A stretch of 64,000 bases of DNA, from sequence record NC_054912.1; one strand, written 5' to 3'. A program made the translations under genes and the position numbers. The stretch comes from Escherichia phage vB_EcoM_F1. Shown here one piece after another: positions 25,923 to 33,356 of this stretch (position 1 is the stretch's first letter; each line of letters begins with the position of its first letter). Below the pieces are notes generated by a model that made no database searches, was not told the origin of the DNA, and worked only from the letters and a program-made list of their open reading frames with translations.

Positions 25923-26106
25923 TATTCCACCTAATCATTTCAAGATATTGAACTAACTTAGCTTTGGATTTATCCAAATCCTTTTTAGCTGCTTCTATAC
26001 CGTCGTATGAATATCCTTCACAATGCTCAACTGCTAATTGGTATGAATCTATTTCAATATCACGTGCTAATTTAATGATTTTTTCAAACTGTTCACGTGT
26101 TAGCAT
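25912..26106 (-). CDS. small helical protein, member of tandem paralogue set
   Basis: 64 aa, MLTREQFEKIIKLARD... Confidence 0.45.
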   Translation of the reverse strand: MLTREQFEKIIKLARDIEIDSYQLAVEHCEGYSYDGIEAAKKDLDKSKAKLVQYLEMIRWNNEN

Positions 26107-26108
26107 AC

Positions 26109-26300
26109 TTACACTCTCGTATTATGATCGATAATTTCATCAAGAAACATATCTAACGCTTCTACAGCATTATTAAATTTAGCTTCAAATTCTTCAATAC
26201 CTGATAAACCTGATAAGGCAAAGTTAATGCGTTCCTCATCTGCTTTACGAATTGAAGCCACTAATTCCTTGATTTTATCCGCTTGCTCTACACTAATCAT
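26109..26300 (-). CDS. small helical protein, member of tandem paralogue set
   Basis: About 63 aa from [16 protein letters not shown]; the listed ORF extends to 26336. Confidence 0.45.
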   Translation of the reverse strand: MISVEQADKIKELVASIRKADEERINFALSGLSGIEEFEAKFNNAVEALDMFLDEIIDHNTRV

Positions 26301-26533
26301 TATTCCACCACATATGAAAGAGAGAATATTGCACACGCCATGTGAGTTGCAACTTCATCACACATATCATAACGTTTCTTAAGAAGTTCTACAAGTTCTT
26401 CACTAGTGACTTCATCCATGTCGACGAAAAAATCACCATTAATGATGACATAGATATTTCCTTCTTGATTAAGTGCTTCAATTTTCATGATGTTCTCCTC
26501 TTTATCCGATGGTTGTATAGTATCACAGCTCAA
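26300..26533 (-). CDS. hypothetical small protein
   Basis: 77-aa ORF. Confidence 0.45.
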
Positions 26534-26547
26534 ATGGAAAGTAAACC
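26513..26547 (-). promoter_or_regulatory. T4-type early promoter
   Basis: ggttgtatagtatcac ... agtaaacc module. Confidence 0.5.
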
Positions 26548-26556
26548 GGTAAAATG

Positions 26557-26578
26557 AAAAAAGTCTCCCGAAGGAGAC
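26557..26578 (-). terminator. rho-independent terminator
   Basis: Minus GUCUCC-UUCG-GGAGAC followed by U6. Confidence 0.65.
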
Positions 26579-26583
26579 TAATG

Positions 26584-26859
26584 TTATTCGAGGGAAAGAA
26601 GATACTTACTCTGGTAAAACATTCCAGTAATATCATCTATCGTGCTTTGGATGGCTGGAGGCATTTCTTTATAAATGCTGTTAGATTGGTCTAGTATGCG
26701 ATCAATCATTTTAATTGTGTCGGTAGGAAGTTTACTAGCATCTGGAATTGAAGGTGTGTATTTTCTACCAGAATACCCCAAATATTGCTCACCAAATTTA
26801 TCAATCAAATCTGGCAACTCGGAGAAAATAAAATCGTCTAGCATAACTTTTAGTTTCAA
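26584..26859 (-). CDS. hypothetical protein (rI.-1 position)
   Basis: 91-aa ORF just downstream of rI. Confidence 0.5.
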
Positions 26860-26955
26860 AATGCGCAGAATGAAAATAAGCTTGTGCAGCCATTAATAAA
26901 CCTAAGTATTCATCTGCCTTTGAAGGTTTTCCACTTTGTGAAAAGTCGCTGAATT

Positions 26956-27249
26956 TCATTCAGTCTCCAATTTAATGTTCATAATTCTAGCGTATGATTG
27001 TGCCATCTCCGCGCCTCGCTCTATACATTCAAAATCGGAAGAGCACGGGTCATTTTTATAAGTCGTTCGCATAAAACTATAGAACTGTTCAGATGATTCT
27101 ACGCTTTTATTTTCAAAAAGCATATAAACGTGTCTAATACCAGATTCCATAAATTTATCAAAATGAGGATCGACATTCGCTTCAATTGGTGGAGATAAAG
27201 CAAACGCTAATCCTAGCATGGCAAATAGTGCCGTTGCTTTTAAGGCCAT
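26956..27249 (-). CDS. rI: lysis-inhibition regulator rI
   Basis: 97 aa with N-terminal signal-anchor; matches T4 RI. Confidence 0.9.
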   Translation of the reverse strand: MALKATALFAMLGLAFALSPPIEANVDPHFDKFMESGIRHVYMLFENKSVESSEQFYSFMRTTYKNDPCSSDFECIERGAEMAQSYARIMNIKLETE

Positions 27250-27261
27250 AAAGGCCTCCTA

Positions 27262-27474
27262 TCATTTTTGTCCTGTATTTACTTTATGCCGATGCACGGC
27301 CTTAACTTTATCAAGGTATTTTTCAAAATTTCGCAATCTAGTATAGTCTGCCGGAGATTGGTTGAGTGATACTTCTCGACGCAAAGCTGAAATGATATTT
27401 CCAACTTCCCTACGAATTTCATCTAATTGAAGAACAGTAAGATTGCAAAGTTGCTTTTCAGTTAATTGTAGCAT
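27262..27474 (-). CDS. hypothetical protein (rI.1 position)
   Basis: 70-aa ORF. Confidence 0.5.
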
Positions 27475-27516
27475 ATATACCCCTTTAGTTAGATAAACCT
27501 ATTTATAACTTTTGCA

Positions 27517-28098
27517 CTAACCGAGCTTTTTAGTTAATTCGTTCCAATGTTTTCTACACAAAGAAACATAAATTTCATCACCAATACAGATTTGATTACC
27601 TTCTTTAACTGGTGTTCCATCTTCCATTAATCGAGCTGTCATAATAGCTTTTTTACCACAATGACAAACTGCCTTTAGTTCAATAAGTTTATCTGCAATC
27701 GCCAAAAGTTCTTTAGAACCTTCAAATAATTTTCCAGCGAAATCAGTCCTTAATCCATAAGCCATAACAGGAACATTATATGTATCAACAATTCGGCTTA
27801 ATTGATGCACTTGTTCAGTTTTTAAAAACTGAGCTTCATCTACAAATACGCAATGAATATCTTTTTGTGCTTCAGCCCATTTATAGAACTCGAAAATATC
27901 CATATCATCTGTAATAATATTCGCTTCCTGCTTAATTCCAATGCGAGAAACGACTTCACAGACAGAATCGCGAGTATCAATAGCGGGTTTAAGAACTAAT
28001 ACACTCATTCCACGTTCTTTATAATTATGTGCGGCAGTCAAAAGAGAAGCAGATTTTCCAGCATTCATTGCTGCATAAGTAAAAATTAAACTCGCCAT
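27517..28098 (-). CDS. tk: thymidine kinase
   Basis: 193 aa; P-loop AMNAGKS and C-terminal zinc-binding Cys pairs. Confidence 0.95.
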   Translation of the reverse strand: MASLIFTYAAMNAGKSASLLTAAHNYKERGMSVLVLKPAIDTRDSVCEVVSRIGIKQEANIITDDMDIFEFYKWAEAQKDIHCVFVDEAQFLKTEQVHQLSRIVDTYNVPVMAYGLRTDFAGKLFEGSKELLAIADKLIELKAVCHCGKKAIMTARLMEDGTPVKEGNQICIGDEIYVSLCRKHWNELTKKLG

Positions 28099-28107
28099 AT
28101 CACCTTC

Positions 28108-28293
28108 TTAAAGCGTATTCACATAAGCTATTAATTCATTTTCTTTCTTATCAAACCGATCAGCAAATTCTTCCTGCTGTTCGGGAGATAACGGGCCGTA
28201 TTCATCATAAAAGGTGTTTGCTTCTGTATGCTCATCTAGAAGTTCATGGATAAGCTCAAATAATTTATCTTTTTGTTCTTTACTCAGACTCAT
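28108..28293 (-). CDS. small helical protein (tk.1 position), related to the tandem small-protein family
   Basis: 61 aa, MSLSKEQKDKLFELIHELL... Confidence 0.5.
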   Translation of the reverse strand: MSLSKEQKDKLFELIHELLDEHTEANTFYDEYGPLSPEQQEEFADRFDKKENELIAYVNTL

Positions 28294-28459
28294 ATATTAA
28301 TTTCCAGGAGTTTTAAAATAATTCGCTTTTGCTTAAATATTTCCATAGTTAAATGACCAGTATCTTTTTGACCGATTCCAATGGCAAAACCTTTATTAAC
28401 AGCGAGTTCAATTAAATTATCAAGCTCACGTAACACTTCGTATTGTAACTCAAAACTAT

Positions 28460-28666
28460 TCATTTTGGTTTACCTTCTTTAACGAAATCTGGATAAGGAT
28501 AAAATCCCGAATAAAATCCTTCACCTTTATGATTGATACATCCTTTATTAGAACAATAGCACCAATAATCGAAATCACAAGCCATTTCATCGTTGCATAA
28601 AGCAAAAACAACCGGCCACTTACACTTTTCACAATGGGCATTTTTAAGAATACTAGTTTGGCTCAT
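28460..28666 (-). CDS. Cys-rich small protein
   Basis: About 68 aa with several Cys pairs; start set at the internal Met giving an ATGA overlap. Confidence 0.45.
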   Translation of the reverse strand: MSQTSILKNAHCEKCKWPVVFALCNDEMACDFDYWCYCSNKGCINHKGEGFYSGFYPYPDFVKEGKPK

Positions 28667-28875
28667 AACCATGTCACCTTCAAGCAATATTCTTCTACGT
28701 GCTGTTTGCGACCTTTCTTATCAATAAAGGTATATTCAACGAATGTTCCAATGTAGTCTTTATCTACATCATGTAGACTATTAATTGGGCATTTAGTACG
28801 GCAAATGCGTTCCCATTGACGAATAATTTCTGCTTTGTTTTTAGGATCAAACGGATGCGGGTAATGCACTTTCAT
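28663..28875 (-). CDS. hypothetical small protein
   Basis: 70-aa ORF. Confidence 0.45.
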   Translation of the reverse strand: MKVHYPHPFDPKNKAEIIRQWERICRTKCPINSLHDVDKDYIGTFVEYTFIDKKGRKQHVEEYCLKVTWL

Positions 28876-29326
28876 AATCCACCACTATTAAATCAATATC
28901 AGGAGTAAACATGTCGATTAATTTAGAAACCTTATCCCAATCACCGCCAGCAATACCACAACCTATGCGTGGAATGTAAATTACTGGTTTAAACAAAAGG
29001 GTTTCTGCCTGTAGATTTAATTCTATCATGCAGTTTACTAAAGCACCATAATCAAGATTAGGACCTGGTTCGTATTGCGTATACAAGTTATAACATATGC
29101 CAAAACCATTAGGTTTATGTTTAAAAACAATAGACATATCACCGAGTTTTTCACGCGAACCATATTCAGTAGTAGTTTTATCTATTTCTAAAATTTTAGG
29201 ATAGGCCCTTGCTAATTGACCAGCTACACCACTGCCCATTGTATGAAAACAATTGCATCCATGCGCAATATTTTTACCTTCAGCGAAAAGGGCGACAATA
29301 TCGCCCTTGATATATTTTACAATCAT
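28847..29326 (-). CDS. macro-domain protein (putative ADP-ribose-binding or -processing)
   Basis: 159 aa; GDIVALFAEGKNIAHGCNCFHTMGSGVAGQLARA resembles the macro-domain ADP-ribose-binding motif. Confidence 0.6.
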   Translation of the reverse strand: MIVKYIKGDIVALFAEGKNIAHGCNCFHTMGSGVAGQLARAYPKILEIDKTTTEYGSREKLGDMSIVFKHKPNGFGICYNLYTQYEPGPNLDYGALVNCMIELNLQAETLLFKPVIYIPRIGCGIAGGDWDKVSKLIDMFTPDIDLIVVDYESALPASV

Positions 29327-29670
29327 CTAGTACTCAATCCTCGATTATAAGAATCTACCAAACGGTCAACCATTGAATGACAAGCGGCTTTATCTTTCTC
29401 CTCCGCAACTGAACATTCTAAGGTATTCCACTTTTTAGCATATCGTTTTAATAATGTATCGTTTTTGTATCTGCTTGATTTATCTCTTTCTCCGTCTTTA
29501 TATGCATATATTAATTTCTGTGCAAATTCAGCTTGGCATGCTTTATTTTTCCCACAATAATCTGCCGCAGTGCGGTTTACATATTCTCTAATTTCAGTAT
29601 ATGATGTATCTGCTGACGCAGAAGCAGAAAATGAAATTAATCCTATACATAAAACCAAAATTTTAGTCAT
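29323..29670 (-). CDS. vs: secreted small protein at the T4 vs position
   Basis: 115 aa with N-terminal signal peptide (ILVLCIGLISFSASASA); assignment by position. Confidence 0.55.
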   Translation of the reverse strand: MTKILVLCIGLISFSASASADTSYTEIREYVNRTAADYCGKNKACQAEFAQKLIYAYKDGERDKSSRYKNDTLLKRYAKKWNTLECSVAEEKDKAACHSMVDRLVDSYNRGLSTR

Positions 29671-30208
29671 TTACTATTTCCAAAAGTTTATTATTTTTAA
29701 GGTAATTAGCCTTTTCTAGGACTTCAGAAGCATATTTAGAACCTGCTTTAACATTCCATCCCGAATTATAAGAGGATATTGCTTTTCTTATATCGCCCTT
29801 ATGTATATTTAACCAATAAGAAAGTTCAATGTACGCCCAGGAAGCTGAATTGGATCGTTTATTCAACATTCTTTTTATTTCAGCATCGGTCATATTATAA
29901 CCAAGTTCCTTAACTCTTGCTCGCATAGTAGGCAAATAATTTTGGAACATTCCATAAGCGTGATGCTTTGGTTTAGATTTTAAATTAACTCCGCCAGAGC
30001 TTTCTTGCCATAAAATAGCAGCCATTATATGACCTAATCCGCTCTTGTGGATATTTTTATGTGTTTTATATTTTCCATCCTTAGAAAATTGTTCCCCGAA
30101 TTGATACGCGTAACGCATGTTATCGAGTTGGACATTACTGAAAGTATGCTCGGAGCTATGTGCCATCATTGAAATGGCCAATAGACCAGCGAGTAGTGCT
30201 TTTCTCAT
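29663..30208 (-). CDS. periplasmic lytic-transglycosylase-like protein (vs.1 position)
   Basis: 181 aa; signal peptide and QESSG motif typical of SLT-domain catalytic Glu. Confidence 0.6.
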   Translation of the reverse strand: MRKALLAGLLAISMMAHSSEHTFSNVQLDNMRYAYQFGEQFSKDGKYKTHKNIHKSGLGHIMAAILWQESSGGVNLKSKPKHHAYGMFQNYLPTMRARVKELGYNMTDAEIKRMLNKRSNSASWAYIELSYWLNIHKGDIRKAISSYNSGWNVKAGSKYASEVLEKANYLKNNKLLEIVND

Positions 30209-30215
30209 GCTTACC

Positions 30216-30677
30216 TCATTGAGTTTTAATTACTGCTTTAGAAGCCTTTCCTGGTAAACGACGACTGTTAATAATTGCCATCCTACATTGAAGTGACGGG
30301 TCTTTGAACTTCGCATTAGGTTTACAAACTGTAAATCCAAGCCAAAGATTTCCATCTGTGATTTCTAAACGTCCAGGACGATATTCAACCCCATCAATAA
30401 AATCCTCGTCAATGTCAGGACGCGGAGGCATACTCAGGAATTCATTAACTTCTAAAACATGGTCTTTTATTTTATGGAATAATTCAAAAACGTATGTCTC
30501 ATCAATCTCCCGTTGAATTGCGCGATCAAGAAGATGTTGAGAATATTTTAGATGAAACGATGAGACCCCTGCTGCTTTTGATGCCTCACGAATCTCATTG
30601 TTAATTTGACGAAACTCCGACTCAAAGTGACGACGAAGCTTATTTCGACGGATAAAAACTTCTGTATTGATAGTCAT
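30216..30677 (-). CDS. regB: endoribonuclease RegB
   Basis: 153 aa; matches T4 RegB as recalled. Confidence 0.9.
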   Translation of the reverse strand: MTINTEVFIRRNKLRRHFESEFRQINNEIREASKAAGVSSFHLKYSQHLLDRAIQREIDETYVFELFHKIKDHVLEVNEFLSMPPRPDIDEDFIDGVEYRPGRLEITDGNLWLGFTVCKPNAKFKDPSLQCRMAIINSRRLPGKASKAVIKTQ

Positions 30678-30702
30678 GTTATTCTCCTCTTAACTGATAG
30701 AA

Positions 30703-30737
30703 AAATTATACCACAGTCAAGAGGAAAAGTAAACAGT
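30703..30737 (-). promoter_or_regulatory. T4-type early promoter upstream of regB
   Basis: Minus GTTTAC -35 and TGGTATAAT extended -10. Confidence 0.55.
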
Positions 30738-31057
30738 TATTCTTTAAATCTAATCAATTTATTCATAGACTTTGAAACTTCTGCACGAACCTCATGTAGA
30801 TTTTTGAGCTGTTCAAGACGCTGCTCATAGTAAGCAATTTCATCTTCTTCGAGACAGTCCTGTGAATCTTCTTTAAGATAACGTGCATAGTCCTGAAAAG
30901 CGTTACGAACTACTTCCTGGAAATCATCAAGACTTTGAATTTTCTTAGGAGCAGCAGATACACGACGAGGGGCAGTATAATACTCATAACCAAACCCTGC
31001 GCTTAATTGAGCCATTAGTATTTTTCCTCTGGTTGGAACACAGCACGGCAAGCCCAC
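30737..31057 (-). CDS. hypothetical protein (vs.3 position)
   Basis: 106-aa ORF. Confidence 0.5.
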
Positions 31058-31281
31058 ATACTGGCTTCTTTGAGTTTCGTTTTAGCAATAGTTAACTGAT
31101 CGAGGCTTTCGGCGTAATTCTTCGCGAGTTCATCATCTTCACAGCTATCAAATGCTTCCCAAAATTCATCGTATAAAGCATCAAAGATAAGTCCTAAACG
31201 AACTTCAGCGTCTTTGATAGCATTCACTTTACCGATTTTCTCTTCAGTATGTGGTTTATAACCTTTAATATCTTCAATCAT
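31015..31281 (-). CDS. small protein at the vs.4 position; candidate Acb2-type cyclic-nucleotide sponge
   Basis: About 88 aa from the internal Met with a GAGGAAG RBS; assignment by gene order only. Confidence 0.45.
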
Positions 31282-31495
31282 ATTTGACTTCCTCACCAGT
31301 ACATAAATCATATTCAACTAAACGAATAGGTTCATGAATGCCATATCCTTGAACAGAAATTTCTGTAGTAGGATAAATTCCATTAATATCACCCATGTTC
31401 CATGCTTCGTTAAATTGCTGTTCGCCTGAATTACTAAACCATTCGGCGAAAGCATTTAACACATCTTCAGAACCTTCAATAATTATCTTTGCCAT
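31274..31495 (-). CDS. hypothetical small protein (vs.5 position)
   Basis: 73-aa ORF. Confidence 0.5.
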   Translation of the reverse strand: MAKIIIEGSEDVLNAFAEWFSNSGEQQFNEAWNMGDINGIYPTTEISVQGYGIHEPIRLVEYDLCTGEEVKYD

Positions 31496-31857
31496 TACAA
31501 ACTCTCGGTAAAGGTACGAGCGATAACGTCGCGCTGCTGTTCCGGAGTCAGAGAGTTAAAGCGAACTGCATAACCGGATACACGGATGGTCAGCTGTGGA
31601 TATTTTTCCGGATGCTTAACTGCATCTTCCAGAGTTTCACGACGCAGAACGTTAACGTTCAGGTGTTGACCACCTTCAATTTTAACTGTAGGCTGTTGCT
31701 CAATTTCAATTTCACGGGCATGCAAACCATAGAAAATTTCTGGGTCTACAAAAGAGTCCTCTTTAAAGGTTTTAGAGACAATAATTCGCGCTTGAATACC
31801 ATCTTCAAAATAAATAGTACCTTTATGTGTGCCTTCAAGAATTTGATATGCTTTCAT
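31495..31857 (-). CDS. autonomous glycyl-radical cofactor (GrcA/YfiD-like)
   Basis: 120 aa ending with the glycyl-radical motif [17 protein letters not shown]. Confidence 0.85.
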
Positions 31858-31864
31858 ATAAACC

Positions 31865-32194
31865 TCAATTAGAAAATAAATTTATCCAAGATTGTTCTTT
31901 AATTAAAAATGGCTCAGAATCATATGCCATTAAACTCTGTGTGATTAGTCCTTTAAAAGGCCCATCAATAAATTCCATGGTAAAATATGGAATTTTATTC
32001 ATTAGCCGTGCATTAGGAGCAGTGCACAAAACTTTGCATCCTTTGAATACGCCTTTTTGCAATTTGTATTGCTTGGGATAAAATTCGCTCAAAATGTTAT
32101 TATTTGCTAAAATTTCAAAATGATTCACCAATTTATTTTTAATAGTTTTTGGTGAAAAATAAAGATATTCGAAAAGCTGTGTGTCTGTCATCAT
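31865..32194 (-). CDS. hypothetical protein (vs.7 position)
   Basis: About 109 aa from the internal Met; ATGA overlap with the upstream gene. Confidence 0.5.
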
Positions 32195-32730
32195 TGCATT
32201 CCGATTACGAAAAACTGTGGACGAGTAATACCACCAATACAACATTTAATATTACAGCAGCAGTGTACAGTGTCAATATGGACACTATAAATCTTATCCA
32301 TATCAGGAGATTTGACAGGCTCATCAATTATATACAAAATTCGCGAAAGCGATAAACCTCTGAACTTGCTTCCTTTATTACCGATAAAACTGCGCACAGA
32401 ATCAGTAAATAAACGAAAACGTATATCATCATTAGAATAACGCGAAAATTCCTTTTTGATGCTATTTGCAGAAATTTTAGCGTAAGCTGAAGTATTAGAA
32501 AGAACAATAACTGTTCCACCGTCATACAACCAATTAGCGGCAAAATTAGTTACTGCAGTTGATTTACCGGATTGACGTCCACCATCTAGTCGAAGTGTGC
32601 AATACTGCTTAAGTAAGTCTTCAAATGGTGGGATATAATCGTTTTTACAAATTTCTTCTACTCTAGCATCAGAATGGTGTGTAAAAGCATTCATCAGGGA
32701 TAGATAAGGACCAGTTAAAAATGTTCTCAT
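32191..32730 (-). CDS. P-loop NTPase-like protein (vs.8 position)
   Basis: 179 aa; Walker A GGRQSGKST and Walker-B-like ILYIIDEP; Cys-rich C-terminus. Confidence 0.55.
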   Translation of the reverse strand: MRTFLTGPYLSLMNAFTHHSDARVEEICKNDYIPPFEDLLKQYCTLRLDGGRQSGKSTAVTNFAANWLYDGGTVIVLSNTSAYAKISANSIKKEFSRYSNDDIRFRLFTDSVRSFIGNKGSKFRGLSLSRILYIIDEPVKSPDMDKIYSVHIDTVHCCCNIKCCIGGITRPQFFVIGMQ

Positions 32731-32882
32731 TTCTTCTCTCTAAGTTTGGGCCATTCCGTGGCGCATGAATTGTCCATTTCTGTATTTACCCATTACCGCA
32801 CTTGGGCTCGACCTTATTACAGGTTGGCGGGAATCCCTCACAAAATCATGAGGTCCAGGTTGTTCCCATATTTCTTATTTGC

Positions 32883-33356
32883 TTATTTGAATGATTTAAC
32901 GTACTGAATAGAACCTTTACTATTCACGAAAGCGATTTTACCATTTTTATTATACATGGTAGCAGTACGCTGATATCCATAAGTTTGCTTACCAGATTGA
33001 TAACCAACTAATGCGAAATTATCTTCACCCATTTTATTCTGTTTAGCGCGAATGCGTTCATGACCATGTGCCATAAGAACCTTAGCATCACCCGTTGCAA
33101 TGGATCTACGAGTTTTTTCATCTTCAACTGTATTAACAAAGTCGTCAAATGAATCAAATTTAGCATGAGATTTATTATACAGTTTTCCATCTACTGCATA
33201 ATTATATCCTTGTACATCCATCTCAACTTCTGTACCATCATCCAATACAGCAGTGATTTTCTGTCCTTTTTTAAATTTCAAAAGATCAGTAAAAGATTCA
33301 GCAATAATTTGAGAATTAATAGCTGCTTCAGTAATAAATTCTTGATATGTTTTCAT
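32883..33356 (-). CDS. head internal protein (IP-type) with capsid-targeting N-terminus
   Basis: 157 aa; N-terminal MKTYQEFITE|A matches the internal-protein targeting sequence and an LxE/IxE prohead-protease site. Confidence 0.7.
   Translation of the reverse strand: MKTYQEFITEAAINSQIIAESFTDLLKFKKGQKITAVLDDGTEVEMDVQGYNYAVDGKLYNKSHAKFDSFDDFVNTVEDEKTRRSIATGDAKVLMAHGHERIRAKQNKMGEDNFALVGYQSGKQTYGYQRTATMYNKNGKIAFVNSKGSIQYVKSFK

Follow-up and report, generated by a model that had tools for sequence, protein, structure and literature searches.

The DNA considered here is a stretch of 64,000 nucleotides (the window) from the Tequatrovirus Escherichia phage vB_EcoM_F1 (record NC_054912.1), and its subject is a pair of adjacent genes on the minus strand, vs.1 and vs. 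Both products are predicted to be exported, the first as a divergent enzyme resembling lytic transglycosylases and the second as a small protein which carries the label of a modifier of the host valyl-tRNA synthetase (ValRS). The two open reading frames (ORFs) to which an earlier note on this DNA had drawn attention are indeed present and are the T4 genes of these names:

29663-30208, minus strand: vs.1, coding sequence of a 181-residue precursor, a predicted exported SLT/GH23 lytic transglycosylase-like enzyme.
29323-29670, minus strand: vs, coding sequence of a 115-residue precursor, labeled 'valyl-tRNA synthetase modifier'.

Vs.1 is 100% identical to T4 Vs.1 (NP_049725, UniProt P13311) and Vs is 100% identical to T4 Vs (NP_049724, UniProt P13310, VS_BPT4); the gene order in T4, regB-vs.1-vs-tk.4-...-tk, is also that of the window, and there is no difference at the level of the two proteins. 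Over 28800-30700 the DNA matches that of Escherichia phage vB_EcoM_FN at 100% identity and that of hundreds of Tequatrovirus genomes at 97-99%. Neither the genes nor the SLT similarity of Vs.1 is new, and the only interesting point is the conflict over the localization of Vs. The SLT match was reported by Nolan et al. in 2006, citing older T4 PSI-BLAST results (PMC1524935), and some GenBank records already call Vs.1 a 'transglycosylase SLT domain-containing protein'.

The enzyme-like features of Vs.1 are located as follows:

29747-30028, minus strand: SLT domain of Vs.1, residues 61-154 (Pfam span), with motifs I-III.
30002-30004, minus strand: codon of Glu69, the predicted single catalytic acid of Vs.1, read from the sequence.

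Vs.1 matches Pfam SLT (PF01464) with 25.1 bits against a gathering cutoff of 21.3 (E = 1.4e-5), several of its homologues have a precomputed PF01464 hit, and the protein belongs to PHROG 600. Motif I is WQE69SS, motif II is G86-M-F88-Q89-N90, motif III is S146-Y147-N148-S-G150, and a conserved tyrosine, Y159, lies just past the span of the domain. The alignments comprised 24 homologues (down to 41% identity) and four more distant ones (about 31-42%), from T4-like phages, Aeromonas phages, Felixounavirus and Ackermannviridae; the invariant positions are E69, G86/F88/Q89/N90, S146/Y147/N148/G150 and Y159. Family 1 lytic transglycosylases, in the classification of Blackburn and Clarke, are recognized by a catalytic E-S, motifs like G-L-M-Q and A-Y-N-x-G, and a downstream tyrosine, and it is to these signatures that the invariant positions of Vs.1 correspond in the alignments.

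The AlphaFold2 (AF2) model of Vs.1 has a predicted local distance difference test (pLDDT) score of 87.9 and places E69 at the end of the helix 59-70. Its top Foldseek matches in the PDB are MltD (8rhi), a GH23 chitinase (3w6e), Slt (5ohu/6fcq/1sly), LtgA (5mpq) and phi6 P5 (4dq5), at probabilities as high as 1.00 and template-modeling scores of 0.44-0.54. The reading of QESSG (residues 68-72) as the catalytic Glu of an SLT enzyme, made in the earlier note, is thus borne out by the Pfam match above the cutoff, the invariance of E69 and the Foldseek matches to lytic transglycosylases. Taken together, motifs and model make Vs.1 a divergent, though convincing, member of the GH23/SLT fold with its active site intact. 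The alignment contains no second conserved acidic residue between E69 and G86, which would suit a transglycosylase better than a goose-type lysozyme. It is reasonably likely, judging from motifs and model, that Vs.1 is an active enzyme that cleaves glycan strands.

Compared with E. coli Slt70, P. aeruginosa MltD/Slt and Neisseria LtgA, all family 1/GH23 enzymes, Vs.1 shares the SLT domain, the E-S, G-x-x-Q and Y-N-x-G motifs and the downstream Tyr. However, it is very divergent from them (13-18% identity, Foldseek E-values of 8e-3 or higher) and minimal, consisting of a signal peptide and one domain, with a family-specific N-terminal extension of 40 residues. The GH23 fold also covers hydrolytic goose-type lysozymes and a chitinase, and a 1,6-anhydroMurNAc product of Vs.1, from non-hydrolytic cleavage of peptidoglycan, is a prediction. 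With 2044 phage records, the Vs.1 family takes in, among others, T4-like phages of Klebsiella, Aeromonas and Acinetobacter and also extends to Felixounavirus and Ackermannviridae.

The labels attached to Vs.1 homologues vary: 'endoribonuclease', 'site-specific RNA endonuclease', 'putative RegB protein', 'C-type lysozyme/alpha-lactalbumin family protein' and 'rI antiholin' all occur, and 113-residue members of the Vs.1 protein cluster are labeled 'valyl--tRNA ligase modifier'.

Both precursors begin with a predicted Sec signal peptide:

30155-30208, minus strand: Sec signal peptide of Vs.1 predicted by the rule-based scan (MRKALLAGLLAISMMAHS, residues 1-18), to be cut after AHS.
29611-29670, minus strand: Sec signal peptide of Vs predicted by the same scan (MTKILVLCIGLISFSASASA, residues 1-20), to be cut after ASA.

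These calls were made with a rule-based scan of our own and from conservation; the scan looked for a positive n-region, then some 10-20 hydrophobic residues (the h-region), with small side chains at -3 and -1. With a slash at the predicted cleavage site, the N-terminus of Vs.1 reads MRK-ALLAGLLAISMMA-HS/SEH and that of Vs reads MTK-ILVLCIGLISFSASASA/DTS. Both have the positive n-region and small residues at -3 and -1, the uncharged hydrophobic run being 13 residues long in Vs.1 and 17 in Vs, and acidic residues follow directly after both cleavage sites. The mean Kyte-Doolittle value over nine residues reaches 3.47 at the N-terminus of Vs, which ends in the A-S-A cleavage motif. Among all 174 ORFs of the window of at least 60 residues, the scan flagged only three: Vs, Vs.1 and RI. 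The last of these is a 97-residue ORF (MALKATALFAMLGLAFALSPPIEANVDP...; 26956-27249, minus strand) just past tk; this position and the Antiholin Pfam label of its counterparts in syntenic loci identify it as the T4 antiholin rI, which is known to act in the periplasm, and it served as a positive control for the scan.

The same tripartite architecture was kept in all database homologues (13/13 for Vs and 24/24 for Vs.1) and in 27/27 independent IMG/VR loci, and it also occurs in the Vs.1 relatives from Aeromonas phages, Felixounavirus and Ackermannviridae. The signal sequence itself is poorly conserved, whereas the mature parts are well conserved; since the N-terminal architecture stays constant while its sequence drifts, selection for export is implied. 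In the AlphaFold models the first 20 residues have a mean pLDDT of about 50 (Vs.1) or below 50 (Vs), and the rest of each protein is high. Furthermore, a distant Vs homologue (P0096) has a lipobox, LSGC, in place of the signal peptidase I site, which also implies a location in the envelope. The cleavable-looking signal peptides described in the earlier note have therefore stood up to the scan and to the comparison of homologues. From these N-termini it is likely, and we hold this with good confidence, that both Vs and Vs.1 are mainly periplasmic. Cleavage at the predicted sites would yield the semi-tryptic peptides DTSYTEIR (Vs) and SEHTFSNVQLDNMR (Vs.1).

A reading of T4 Vs itself as a lipoprotein, with Cys8 of LVLC as the modified residue, was discarded: Leu is not a residue that a lipobox has at -1, and Cys8 is not conserved. 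N-terminally His-tagged full-length T4 Vs has been found insoluble in the E. coli cytoplasm (PMC8076793). This insolubility is expected for the uncleaved precursor of a disulfide-bonded protein, yet it proves nothing.

The mature part of Vs has its own characteristic features:

29326-29610, minus strand: mature Vs, residues 21-115 (11.0 kDa, isoelectric point 8.9), a predicted four-helix bundle with four conserved Cys.
29554-29556, minus strand: codon of Cys39 of Vs.
29536-29538, minus strand: codon of Cys45 of Vs.
29413-29415, minus strand: codon of Cys86 of Vs.
29380-29382, minus strand: codon of Cys97 of Vs.

In the AF2 model, pLDDT exceeds 90 over the bundle, whose helices span residues 22-39, 43-63, 70-86 and 91-112. 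Conservation of C39, C45, C86 and C97 is complete or almost complete: at 22-30% identity they are still present in relatives from Acinetobacter and Klebsiella phages, with the third slightly shifted, and 26/27 IMG/VR loci have four Cys in mature Vs. By the helix limits of the model, all four lie at or near helix ends and flank two turns at one end of the bundle, positions that would be compatible with two disulfides.

Vs belongs to PHROG 1256 (E = 1.7e-39), its homologues carry Pfam PF26829 (ValRS_modifier), and Vs homologues occur in at least 794 phage records of the collection that was searched. A profile search of 1.84 billion representative proteins retrieved eight representative relatives, all of phage-protein size, and no cellular ones; on the evidence of these searches, the Vs family is confined to phages, without relatives outside the T4-like ones. 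The Vs sequence profile has no significant relative in the PDB, and Foldseek searches with the model gave only insignificant helical-bundle matches in the PDB (E-values of 2.5 or higher) and only Vs homologues in BFVD, where the best match outside the family is a phage 'Lipoprotein' (E = 0.13). NCBIfam gave nothing useful for Vs or Vs.1.

A Vs variant of 85 residues, with an internal deletion, occurs on a 155101-bp IMG/VR contig (L040, 1402-1659) and in Escherichia phage vB_EcoM_005. It keeps the signal peptide and the C-terminal half with two Cys, and has lost approximately residues 21-63; PHROG 38498 seems to be this short form. As for annotation, Vs is frequently labeled 'valyl-tRNA synthetase', that is, as the enzyme itself.

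The two genes are tightly linked, with the following junction:

29663-29670, minus strand: overlap of 8 nucleotides between vs.1 and vs (AATGACTAA), the ATG of vs lying within the final codons of vs.1.

This overlap suggests that translation of vs is coupled to that of vs.1. In 27/27 IMG/VR loci that carry vs, the gene immediately upstream in the same orientation is vs.1, at a gap of -8 to +3 nucleotides. The adjacency holds in every other inspected locus with vs; in Acinetobacter phage Mokit and Klebsiella phage Roth51, too, the ORF after vs.1 is a Vs, though a divergent one.

Two seeming exceptions to the linkage were rejected. The decayed vs of Edwardsiella phage PEi20, a 54-residue fragment in RefSeq (L012, 2236-2400), results from a start annotated too late, and ORF analysis revealed an intact 115-residue vs abutting vs.1 (L012, 2053-2400; L024, 1501-1848). 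Similarly, the absence of vs from locus L005 is due to a scaffold gap of Ns.

The genes on either side and the signals of the region are these:

30216-30677, minus strand: regB, an endoribonuclease gene directly upstream of vs.1 (Pfam REGB_T4, E = 1.4e-68).
28847-29326, minus strand: tk.4, a gene for a macro-domain protein that follows vs (Pfam Macro, E = 2.4e-8).
30705-30733, minus strand: sigma-70-type early-promoter-like site upstream of regB (TTTACT, 17 nucleotides, TG-TATAAT).

The frames of regB, vs.1, vs and tk.4 are packed tightly or overlap: the regB stop codon overlaps the ribosome-binding site of vs.1 (GAGG at 30214-30217), and the ATG of tk.4 overlaps the stop codon of vs by 4 nucleotides (ATGA). 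In a consensus scan the promoter-like site has 10/12 consensus matches and an extended -10 TG, and it probably drives the unit regB-vs.1-vs-tk.4, as far as its sequence and position can tell. In the supplement of a time-resolved omics study of T4, vs and vs.1 are both classed as early-RNA/middle-protein (PMC9697503), and therefore both products are made. The unit and this class agree with what the earlier note had proposed, namely, that these are early proteins distinct from the endolysin. ORFs on the plus strand across the vs/vs.1 region are short and zero have support, an Rfam search at the gathering threshold over both strands of 26000-33000 found zero RNA families, and PADLOC gave zero hits.

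The proposed explanation of the locus is as follows. The Vs.1 precursor would be exported by the Sec route, and signal peptidase I would remove roughly its first 18 residues, releasing an 18.8-kDa soluble periplasmic enzyme of the GH23/SLT fold. It would cleave the bond between N-acetylmuramic acid (MurNAc) and N-acetylglucosamine (GlcNAc) in peptidoglycan, with Glu69 as the sole catalytic acid, and would act as a sub-lytic accessory enzyme for early wall remodeling or space-making, not as an endolysin. Vs would take the same export route, be cut after ASA20, and fold to an 11-kDa four-helix bundle held by two disulfides from the four conserved Cys; its site of action would be the periplasm, where it would most likely join Vs.1 as a modulator, an inhibitor or a stabilizing partner. 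The core of this explanation, that both proteins are exported and that Vs.1 is an SLT-type accessory enzyme, is moderately probable given the sequences and models. The claim that Vs is a Sec-exported, disulfide-bonded periplasmic four-helix protein whose main function is tied to Vs.1 (for example, as its regulator or inhibitor) rather than to ValRS is tentative; likewise, we give joint action of Vs with Vs.1 somewhat less than an even chance.

Several observations weigh against parts of this explanation. The Foldseek E-values of Vs.1 are modest (8e-3 for the best match to 0.35), and its sequence profile has no significant relative in the PDB, the best being a goose-type lysozyme (E = 0.34). 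The four Cys of Vs could bind a metal instead of forming disulfides. Homologues of vs.1 occur without an adjacent vs in Felixounavirus, Ackermannviridae and Aeromonas phage 31, and therefore Vs.1 does not need Vs for its function. Mature Vs and mature Vs.1 are both basic, the latter with an isoelectric point of 9.65, which does not favor a tight complex of the two. Finally, Neidhardt, Marchin and co-workers are reported to have observed in vivo effects of vs on a temperature-sensitive ValRS; as ValRS is cytoplasmic and is reportedly bound by the vs product, a cytoplasmic protein would be needed.

The interval between vs.1 and tk.4 of Aeromonas phage 31 (L008, 3105-3796) has no vs and contains a 75-residue ORF and a 146-residue ORF annotated as 'putative membrane lipoprotein' (MKKSIATLIAIGMYGCSAV...). 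The slot after vs.1 thus again holds an envelope-targeted protein.

The earlier note had called a periplasmic Vs unexpected, and this surprise is justified; it is strengthened by the four conserved Cys, the lipobox variant and the adjacency to vs.1. The label goes back to classical work (Muller and Marchin 1975 and 1977), in which a phage peptide of about 10 kDa (tau) is reported to bind and stabilize the host ValRS. By sequence, Vs is a member of the 'ValRS modifier' family through its identity to VS_BPT4, its place in PHROG 1256 and the PF26829 matches of its homologues. A tau factor would reside in the cytoplasm, whereas the signal peptide, the four Cys and the lipobox variant predict that Vs does not. 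With its 11.0 kDa, mature Vs is nearer to the reported size of tau than the 13.1-kDa precursor is, and this sharpens the paradox, since the cut by signal peptidase is made on the periplasmic side. In the 1986 sequence record the gene appears simply as 'ORF 60.9', not as vs, and searches of the literature other than the primary vs papers found nothing on how ORF 60.9 came to be assigned to vs. The label 'valyl-tRNA synthetase modifier' does not fit the predicted periplasmic location, and on the vs ORF it looks doubtful or incomplete. The label may have been given to the wrong ORF, Vs may have two locations or a side activity in a fraction that stays cytoplasmic, or the effect may arise at least partly in extracts.

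The alternative that fares best is that the annotation is right. Vs would then be the cytoplasmic tau acting on ValRS, with a hydrophobic N-terminus that does not serve export or does so inefficiently, and its adjacency to vs.1 would reflect gene order only. The label is universal in databases (PHROG 1256, Pfam PF26829, UniProt VS_BPT4), the mature mass is close to that of tau, and, because T4-like phages keep the whole block from regB to tk in synteny, adjacency by itself says little about a functional link. Classical biochemistry and genetics also stand behind the label (Muller and Marchin 1975, 1977, as cited in PMC8076793). Nevertheless, the strongly hydrophobic N-terminus with its A-S-A motif, the retention of the signal architecture in all homologues despite sequence drift and the lipobox substitute in one lineage count against a cytoplasmic protein, and the four conserved Cys suit an oxidizing compartment. 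Even the 85-residue internally deleted variant retains the signal peptide. The first internal ATG encodes M100, so that no leaderless form could arise from an earlier start, and the match in size with tau needs a cleavage which is done on the periplasmic side. A cytoplasmic Vs is accordingly unlikely in our estimate.

A second alternative keeps both proteins in the periplasm and assigns them to the end of infection: Vs.1 would be a secreted auxiliary endolysin, or one of the signal-anchor-release (SAR) type, that aids lysis, and Vs would be its periplasmic inhibitor until then. The SLT fold with an intact active site is consistent with this role, and a muralytic enzyme that is exported and made early could well need a brake expressed along with it. 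Felixounavirus homologues are annotated as 'putative lysin' and lie about 1.2 kb from spanin genes. However, in Felixounavirus garuso the Vs.1 homologue adjoins rIIA/rIIB and a separate lysin of 154 residues is encoded elsewhere in the genome; the homologue there is therefore an extra enzyme, not the endolysin. Mutants of the T4 lysozyme gene e do not lyse, and thus Vs.1 is no substitute for the endolysin. Moreover, expression is early rather than late, by omics class and promoter context, and many phages bear Vs.1 without vs. The SAR version was rejected: the hydrophobic core of 13 residues is short and is followed by a cleavage motif, as is typical of a cleaved signal peptide and not of a SAR domain. 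A role in lysis is on the whole improbable.

A precedent for an auxiliary enzyme of this kind is Tgl of Kayvirus, a staphylococcal-phage enzyme with lytic transglycosylase motifs that is secreted by the Sec transport system of the host and exists beside a regular endolysin (PMC7150955). As is proposed for Vs.1, Tgl is an extra secreted enzyme; it differs in having a Gram-positive host and in belonging to an unrelated sequence family.

The last alternative, in which Vs.1 and/or Vs would serve superinfection exclusion or resistance to lysis from without by binding or altering peptidoglycan or the incoming tail lysozyme and not by productive degradation of the wall, has in its favor that both proteins are early, exported and small, that Vs is a predicted small helical periplasmic protein as Spackle of T4 is, and that the 'putative membrane lipoprotein' after vs.1 in Aeromonas phage 31 hints at an envelope-directed, fast-evolving function, but it is very improbable, as the Foldseek searches connected Vs with no solved structure and with no viral model except those of its own homologues, the fully conserved catalytic motifs of Vs.1 favor catalysis over mere binding, and we know of no experimental link of either protein to exclusion.

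Spackle (gp61.3) is a small early helical signal-peptide protein of T4 and a periplasmic inhibitor of the gp5 tail lysozyme. It is of interest for the preferred reading, that of exported Vs and Vs.1, as a functional model for a possible role of Vs, although Spackle is not encoded beside its target. No similarity of sequence or fold was detected between Spackle and Vs, and Spackle structures are absent from the Foldseek PDB matches of Vs. For Vs.1, the closest counterparts in layout are VirB1, P19 of plasmid R1, IpgF and EtgA, each a cleavable signal peptide with a single SLT domain of about 150-200 residues, which open the wall locally without lysis. They share the minimal layout with Vs.1, a likeness drawn by architecture from general knowledge and not by sequence. 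Unlike Vs.1, these enzymes are tied to a trans-envelope machine, and no machine of this kind is known for early T4 infection.

The surroundings of the pair differ slightly from those in T4. Between tk and tk.4 the window has four small ORFs on the minus strand (28108-28875; 61, 57, 75 and 70 residues), whereas T4 has three (tk.1-tk.3); the 75-residue ORF is rich in cysteine (CEKCKW...CNDEMACDFDYWCYCSNKGCINH), like the 'Phage_zn_bind' ORF at the same place in phage JS10. The tk.4 product has 159 residues in the window and 155 in T4. On the other side, the ORF at the vs.4 position in related loci (L002, 2349-2627; L003, 2456-2719; L007, 2189-2467) matches Pfam Acb2_Tad1_hairpin, an anti-CBASS/Thoeris sponge family. 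The domain was seen in the ORFs of these relatives, and the loci are syntenic to the ORFs of the window upstream of regB, at about 31015-31317. The early block therefore mixes genes for counter-defense, RNA processing and the envelope.

As a reference genome, T4 is the source of hundreds of copied phage annotations. If the tentative reading is true, in which the main function of Vs is periplasmic and tied to Vs.1, either the assignment of tau to ORF 60.9 would be wrong and the real vs would lie elsewhere between rI and e, or the effect on ValRS would be secondary. A periplasmic Vs would make the label misleading, and the long-unexplained modification of ValRS would have to be ascribed to another gene or explained anew. 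Vs.1, for its part, appears to be an early exported wall-cleaving enzyme apart from the endolysin, and it may mark an unstudied step in the way large virulent phages handle the host envelope.

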